Sequence record: NC_049953.1
Origin: Escherichia phage ev099
Direction: 5' to 3' (one strand)
Length of the DNA stretch: 47,224 bases
Shown here: positions 33,633 through 34,383 of the stretch, piece after piece
Position numbering within the stretch: the first letter of the stretch is position 1
Layout: the number at the start of each line of letters is the position of its first letter
The notes under the pieces: generated by a model
What the model was told of the DNA's origin: nothing
Database searches by the model: none
The model's input: only the letters and a program-made list of their open reading frames with translations
Made by a program: the position numbers and the translations under genes

Positions 33633-33888
33633 CTATTCATATCCTCATAGATAAAAAATCGCCCTCACACTGGAGGGCAAAGAAGATTTCCAATAATCAG
33701 AACAAGTCGGCTCCTGTTTAGTTACGAGCGACATTGCTCCGTGTATTCACTCGTTGGAATAAATACACAGTGCAGTGTTTATTAGTATGCCTGTCTTTTA
33801 ACCACATCAGGCTCGGTGGTTCTCGTGTACCCCTACAGCGAGAAAAATAGTAAAATCCTCTTACCCCTACAGTAAGAGAGTGATTTAT

Positions 33889-34383
33889 ATGTCTGATGAA
33901 AAAGGAATAATAAGTAGGATTACAGATGCAGTTTCTGGTGCCGGAGGTGCTCTGATGAGTGCTGTTGGCGCAGTAAAGGAAATCCAGAAAATGCAAATAG
34001 ACTACTCAGTAAAAGAAAAAACATACGAACTTGTCGATAAGCTCATGGATGCCCAACAGCAGCAAATGTCACTTAATGAGCTTTTGATGATTTCTAAGGA
34101 CAAGATTATTGAGCTTGAAGAAAAGATAAATCGAGCCTCTAAGTGGGAAGAGGAAAAGAAAAACTATGAGATGTATACACCTACTGTTGCTACGGTGGTT
34201 TATCGTCTCAAAAAATCGGCAAATACCGGTCAGCCAATGCACTATCTTTGCGCTCAATGCTATGAATCTTCTGTGAAATCCATACTTCAATACGAAGGAT
34301 TTGCACCACCTTCTAACCATAGGATGAGATGCCATAGGTGTAACGCCTCCTATCTGTTCCCTAAATCTGCATTTTCTAAATAA
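33889..34383 (+). CDS. hypothetical coiled-coil / C-terminal zinc-ribbon protein in the lambda ral-sieB slot (candidate exclusion gene)
   Basis: 164 aa from ATG 33889 with AAGAGAG RBS; CAQC...CHRC pair at C-terminus; convergent with N and overlapping its stop by 8 bp; I do not recognise it as lambda SieB or Ral. Confidence 0.6.

Follow-up and report, generated by a model that had tools for sequence, protein, structure and literature searches.

A probable rip1 allele in place of sieB in Escherichia phage ev099

Rip1 (ring interacting pore 1) is a small phage defence protein whose structure and mechanism were published in early 2026. The primary report is that of Patel, McCarthy, Taylor et al. 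(Nature 651:1060-1067, 2026), as summarised in PMC13434031; the mechanistic details used here are drawn from that review, from a meeting report and from the title of PDB entry 9oox. According to the passages of the review that treat Rip1, the protein was discovered in a Pseudomonas aeruginosa prophage, where it is encoded between the small and large terminase genes. The same passages describe Rip1 as non-toxic by itself, and superinfected cells that contain it round up, a sign of inner-membrane damage. Escaper phages are mutated in the portal (Pseudomonas phages) or in the small terminase (E. coli phages), and the trigger of the Pseudomonas Rip1 is reported to be the portal and not the small terminase (PMC13434031). 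A pore runs through the centre of the Rip1 assembly, which causes liposomes to leak dye and perforates E. coli; the C-terminal half of Rip1 contacts the terminase ring, and terminase mutants that are defective in oligomerisation fail to trigger it, as far as the Rip1 section of PMC13434031 describes. An 11:12 stoichiometry is given in the meeting report and agrees with the review. Rip1 is also named among the sensors of the small terminase subunit in the part of PMC13601566 that deals with them. PDB entry 9oox, released on 2026-02-04, is titled 'Cryo-EM Structure of the Escherichia phage HK446 Rip1 in complex with the Enterobacteria phage T6 small terminase', so that the trigger in the solved complex is the small terminase of T6.

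The second system of relevance is SieB of phages lambda and P22, a prophage-expressed, single-gene abortive exclusion system that in lambda lies between ea10 and N. In Escherichia phage ev099 (NC_049953.1), the full 47,224 nucleotides of which were analysed and are called the window here, the corresponding interval holds a different gene. It shares the slot, the orientation and the upstream sequence with sieB and, as rip1, would also belong to the same outcome class, in which one prophage-expressed gene causes abortive exclusion. The two proteins show no homology, however, and the SieB coding sequence (184 aa from its annotated start) is wholly replaced.

Identity of the gene between ea10 and N

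The gene is, judged from its sequence, very probably rip1, an allele of the ring interacting pore 1 gene of phage HK446, with sieB replaced and ral deleted (Table 1). A phmmer search against the PDB sequences returns chain L of 9oox ("ring interacting pore 1 (Rip1)", 164 aa) with E=1.4e-105 in an alignment that spans residues 3-164, and the sole difference is a tyrosine at position 96 in the window versus a histidine in HK446. Foldseek with the AlphaFold2 model of the protein finds 9oox as the only PDB match at E<=0.001, with 99% identity. The window protein agrees in every residue (100% identity) with URC09806.1 of phage vB_EcoP-720R6 and is 99.4% identical to HK446_037; at the DNA level, positions 33651-34383 are 99.2-99.3% identical to HK446 and vB_EcoP-720R6, and the gene adjoins N in both. 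By homology, the Rip1 family further includes JBD30_030 (E=6e-26) and PHROG 1244, to which the window protein is assigned with E=4e-53 and which is annotated as "unknown function" (phrog_1244). The window thus holds a one-residue variant of a protein that is already described, whereas the first-pass annotation had held that it resembled nothing that could be named; it has been named, solved by cryo-EM and reported in Nature. The accompanying guess at an exclusion or abortive-infection gene is upheld through the HK446 Rip1 orthologue, and the proposed T-even target phages fit the complex solved with the T6 small terminase.

General protein-family resources miss the gene. Scans of the window protein against Pfam (best E=0.027) and NCBIfam gave nothing significant. 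The same holds for PADLOC-DB v2 (2023), a check that the first-pass annotation had proposed and for which the best match is PDC-M53B with E=0.019; this database is older than the description of Rip1. A word-index search of 5.8 billion proteins yields only matches named "hypothetical protein", the label that the gene also bears in the phage records of HK446 and 720R6.

In the ORF listing the plus-strand frame opens from a GTG and covers 33880-34383. The in-frame ATG at 33889, which gives 164 aa, is the start in the HK446 annotation, and the HK446 chain in the solved structure has the same N-terminus and length; both the frame proposed at first pass and its convergence with N are borne out. The 8 bp that the two genes have in common (34376-34383) are an overlap that is also annotated in HK446 and 720R6. 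As a plus-strand gene within the leftward pL operon, rip1 lies antisense to pL transcription through N.

The closest characterised relative of the locus is that of HK446, which matches in 163 of 164 residues, in length, in the position beside N with the 8-bp overlap and in the presence of both upstream repeats; its upstream region is 98.3% identical over 237 bp. The differences lie in residue 96 and in the surrounding phage. HK446 is an HK97-like phage with an Sf6-like repressor, whereas ev099 is a siphovirus of the lambda type, with immunity of the same type and Nu1/A packaging genes.

Table 1. Features of the rip1 locus in the window and the corresponding segments of lambda
Feature	Window	Strand	Lambda	Remarks
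cIII/ea10 side	33200-33783		33472-34055	99% identity, blastn
ral and orf28	absent		34056-34395	blastn
ral/orf28 deletion junction	33784-33787	.	34056-34395	340 bp in lambda, 4 bp in the window
Segment immediately upstream of sieB	33788-33845	+	34396-34453	58 bp, 100% identity, blastn; left cassette boundary
sieB (lambda), rip1 (window)	33846-34375		34454-35036	replaced, blastn
Direct repeat copy 1, TACCCCTACAG	33828-33838	+		inside the lambda-identical segment; same relative position in lambda, HK620, HK446 and 720R6
TAAAAT	33851-33856	+		only -10-like hexamer between the repeats; candidate promoter element; TAAACT in lambda
Inverted repeat CTCTTAC-CCCTACA-GTAAGAG	33858-33878	.		candidate hairpin, both strands
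Direct repeat copy 2, TACCCCTACAG	33862-33872	+		spaced 34 bp from copy 1 and 17 bp from the ATG; contributes left arm and loop to the small hairpin
rip1 coding sequence, probable	33889-34383	+		164 aa plus stop; ORF list, PDB 9oox chain L, Foldseek
N antiterminator ORF	34376-34777	-		right boundary of the cassette; convergent with rip1
N, nutL, pL	34376-35173		35037-35826	92.7% identity, blastn

The sieB slot and its upstream element

The ea10-N interval measures 1132 bp in lambda (ea10 start at 33904, N stop at 35037) and 743 bp in the window (33633-34375). The difference of 389 bp, which had been estimated at about 390 bp, arises because ral and orf28 are absent and sieB is replaced by a shorter segment. 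With lambda Ral, SieB, RexA and RexB as queries, tblastn gives no homologue in the whole window. Relative to lambda, the exchanged segment starts 43 bp before the ATG and ends exactly at the N stop codon; relative to HK620, the recombination junction falls at the start codon itself. By these alignments the replacement of sieB by rip1 is exact. The upstream segment of sieB is retained in front of rip1, which, in agreement with the earlier placement of the gene, keeps the position and orientation of sieB.

Two direct copies of TACCCCTACAG had been noted upstream of the gene, 34 bp apart, and the sequence indeed occurs exactly twice, with none of 100 shuffles containing two or more matches. The second copy in lambda reads AACCCCTACAG and is spaced by 34 bp as well. 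In the general form (T/A)ACCCCTACAG, the pair with its 34-bp spacing stands upstream of lambda sieB (34436-34480), of rip1 in the window (33828-33872), HK446 and 720R6, and of hkaP in HK620. The repressors of these phages differ: compared with the lambda-type cI of the window, that of HK446 (Sf6-like) is 33% and that of 720R6 70% identical, and the HK620 repressor is annotated as 434/L-like. Since the same repeats accompany different repressors, they belong to the slot as one of its conserved features and are not immunity-specific operators; a role as cI operators was rejected on these grounds, and the operator control suggested in the first-pass annotation is left without support.

The probable promoter that had been placed between the repeats comes down to a TAAAAT hexamer with no recognisable -35 element, and a consensus scan calls no sigma-70 promoter between the two copies. 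The only plus-strand call of the scan (33884-33911) spans the start codon and is within chance expectation. The inverted repeat that includes the second copy would form a 5'-leader hairpin beside the Shine-Dalgarno region on the plus strand (-8.6 kcal/mol, a modest z of -2.2). On the minus strand it would form a hairpin followed by a U-rich run that is terminator-like for pL transcripts (-10.5 kcal/mol, z of -1.7, likewise modest). In the lysogen, rip1 would be expressed from a putative promoter within the conserved upstream segment.

A tentative reading, to which we give distinctly less than even weight, takes the sieB slot as a defence cassette with a fixed promoter and an exchangeable ORF, in which three genes that are either unrelated or strongly diverged (sieB, rip1 and hkaP) follow one conserved upstream element, whatever the immunity repressor. 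The repeats would then serve, as binding sites or at the RNA level, a regulator independent of immunity (a host factor, or a connection to antisense pL transcription), and this regulator would determine when the prophage defence genes are on. rip1 and hkaP would provide alternative trigger specificities of one sensor family.

Protein architecture and alternative readings

The window protein is composed of an amphipathic helix (residues ~7-34), a helical middle (39-90) and a C-terminal β-rich domain (93-158). It thereby matches the single-protein architecture of Rip1 in its 164 aa, its amphipathic N-terminus, its helical middle and its C-terminal globular domain. The AlphaFold2 monomer model, built with 18 homologues, is of moderate confidence and has a mean pLDDT of 69.8, with ~85 in the C-terminal domain and values below 55 in the N-terminal third. 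The low values are expected because this part orders only in the oligomer. In the model, the middle section forms the helices H39-57 and H62-90, in the place where a "coiled-coil" had been noted from the sequence, and helices extend up to residue 90, followed by the β-rich part. The Gly/Ala-rich N-terminal stretch described at first pass is present, but it has the character of an amphipathic helix (hydrophobic moment muH 0.42 for residues 7-24) and not of a hydrophobic anchor. Hydrophobicity of transmembrane grade is not found in the protein, the maximum 19-residue Kyte-Doolittle mean being 1.28. A transmembrane anchor at the N-terminus was rejected on these values in favour of the amphipathic helix.

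The C-terminal domain contains two CxxC pairs (C121/C124 and C148/C151) that are invariant in 11 diverse homologues, JBD30_030 and HkaP of HK620 included; together with about 12 other positions, the four cysteines are invariant from the E. coli to the Pseudomonas copies. This pattern is in keeping with the putative zinc ribbon that the first-pass annotation had read from the CxxC...CxxC spacing, while the match to Pfam Zn_ribbon_4 stays below threshold (E=0.087, 13.2 bits against a cutoff of 30.3).

The position of the gene invites the reading that it encodes a SieB-type superinfection exclusion protein, either analogous to lambda/P22 SieB or a diverged homologue of it, which would stop the lytic growth of other lambdoid phages in the way SieB does. 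The slot, the orientation, the 58-bp upstream segment and the repeat pair are common to lambda sieB and the window gene, and HkaP of HK620, a distant relative, is annotated from its position as a 'putative superinfection exclusion protein'. Clear homology to SieB, for which the first-pass annotation had left room, is not observed: the best blastp match between the two proteins has E=9.6 over 15 residues, and homology was rejected on this value and on the tblastn result given above. The window protein also contains no hydrophobic transmembrane segment, and it is nearly identical to Rip1, whose mechanism is different and structurally defined. A SieB-type protein is therefore so improbable that it hardly enters into the interpretation.

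A further alternative accepts the protein as Rip1 and concerns its one deviating residue. The Y96 allele could have lost or shifted trigger recognition relative to the tested H96 of HK446 and would then defend against other phages or against none. In the AlphaFold model, residue 96 is part of strand 93-99, with which the C-terminal domain begins, and thus in the half that contacts the ring according to the Rip1 section of PMC13434031; the position varies across the family, with Y, F, I and H all occurring. Yet tyrosine is the commonest residue there in the family alignment, phage 720R6 and many E. coli genomes carry the Y96 DNA sequence with 100% identity, which fits a maintained functional allele, and the window ORF is intact with every invariant residue. 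We regard an altered or lost specificity as very unlikely, and the Y96 allele of Rip1 is probably active.

Relatives, trigger and exclusion-gene turnover

The Pseudomonas homologues of Rip1 are found in Casadabanvirus phages (JBD30_030, D3112 orf25 and the copies of DMS3 and MP38). JBD30_030 is also 164 aa long, shares 30% identity with the window protein (pairwise BLASTP) and retains the four cysteines. Like rip1 in the window, the Pseudomonas genes are transcribed against the surrounding phage operon; unlike it, they belong to Mu-like transposable phages and are flanked there by the genes for the small and the large terminase, outside a sieB slot. JBD30_030 itself stands antisense between genes of 166 aa and 550 aa, which fits the placement of the Pseudomonas Rip1 in the part of PMC13434031 that covers its discovery. 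A stand-alone gene opposite to the surrounding operon is thus seen in the window, HK446, 720R6 and JBD30. A paper on exclusion genes of the Pseudomonas transposable phage Fc02 was dropped from the comparison, as it concerns a different locus next to the repressor.

HkaP of HK620, HK629 and HK630 occupies the same slot as the window gene, has 164 aa, conserves the four cysteines and is preceded by both repeats. The upstream region of these phages is 96.6% identical to the window right up to the start codon, whereas the coding sequence is highly diverged (27% amino-acid identity, E=3e-13). In HK620 the gene is found at 1498-1992 and is annotated as 'unknown; putative superinfection exclusion protein', a guess of the annotators. 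On the alignment, HkaP is a distant Rip1-family protein in the same slot. A 53%-identical homologue with a C-terminal extension of ~25 residues is located near the repressor gene of vB_EcoM-689R2 (3001-3570), a different E. coli temperate phage, so that the family is seen in a third kind of genomic setting.

When 1.84 billion cluster representatives are searched with a profile, 2975 members are found at E<=0.001 (1397 at E<=1e-10), nearly all of 150-175 aa, which fits the wide distribution reported for Rip1. The gene itself is present at >=99% identity in 96 of 5426 complete E. coli genomes, at 100 places that are all chromosomal. The 15 E. coli RefSeq records listed all have rip1 beside N under the label "hypothetical protein".

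For the ev099 allele, the trigger, the ~12-mer stoichiometry and the pore formation are carried over by analogy from the literature on HK446 Rip1. The prophage would make Rip1, a protein that is harmless on its own and combines sensor and effector in one small chain. Once the late genes of an invader are expressed, the ring formed by its small terminase (in E. coli phages) or by its portal (in Pseudomonas phages) would serve as the template, and ~12 Rip1 monomers would surround the ring, bound through their C-terminal domains. The N-terminal amphipathic helices would then gather and form a pore in the inner membrane. Death or lysis of the cell would precede maturation of the invader, which makes this an abortive infection.

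How the resident phage spares itself may follow from its packaging genes, from transcription or from both. The small terminase of the window is Nu1-like as in lambda, and a sequence link between it and any chain of 9oox was looked for and not found. rip1 is carried with three packaging and head modules, namely those of Lambdavirus (window), the HK97-like Kwaitsingvirus HK446 and the P22-like Lederbergvirus 720R6, which suggests that none of the three is recognised. The Nu1-type small terminase and the lambda-type portal would go unrecognised, and/or N-antiterminated pL transcription, which runs antisense through rip1, could suppress the gene during lytic growth.

Several other loci of the window differ from lambda or carry accessory genes. 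Between pL/OL and cI, in the slot of lambda rexA and rexB, a single 285-aa protein is encoded (35181-36038, minus strand). It contains an NYN nuclease domain (PF01936, E=6.8e-9, above cutoff) and has weak PADLOC matches to HEC-09 (E=2e-4) and NYN/LabA-like models (E=1.4e-3); it is a candidate for a second, different type of prophage defence gene. The cIII frame (33051-33263, minus strand) ends after ...GVPKNG, which we take to be ~8 residues before the end of lambda CIII. A shortened cIII of the same kind is noted in the HK620 record as 'due internal stop codon'. In the b region, an AraC-family regulator (25201-25953, plus strand; HTH_18/HTH_AraC, E=1e-15) adjoins a fragment of an rve-type transposase (25995-26360, minus strand; E=8e-17). 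A 360-aa Gram-negative porin gene (Porin_1, E=4e-152) is located at 42428-43510 on the minus strand, and OmpD/NmpC-type porin annotations of the related phages 434, ev243 and PhiR11_1 are among the features under matches to the window.

The value of the locus lies mainly in annotation, as rip1 is still recorded as a "hypothetical protein" and is missed by Pfam, NCBIfam and PADLOC 2023. The locus also points to HkaP as a candidate second Rip1 lineage and provides comparative evidence that sieB, rip1 and hkaP have one upstream element in common. The three classical exclusion or anti-restriction functions of lambda are replaced in ev099, with ral lost, sieB exchanged for the probable rip1 and rexAB for the NYN-domain protein, and the phage thus illustrates clearly how defence genes turn over at moron slots that stay in place.
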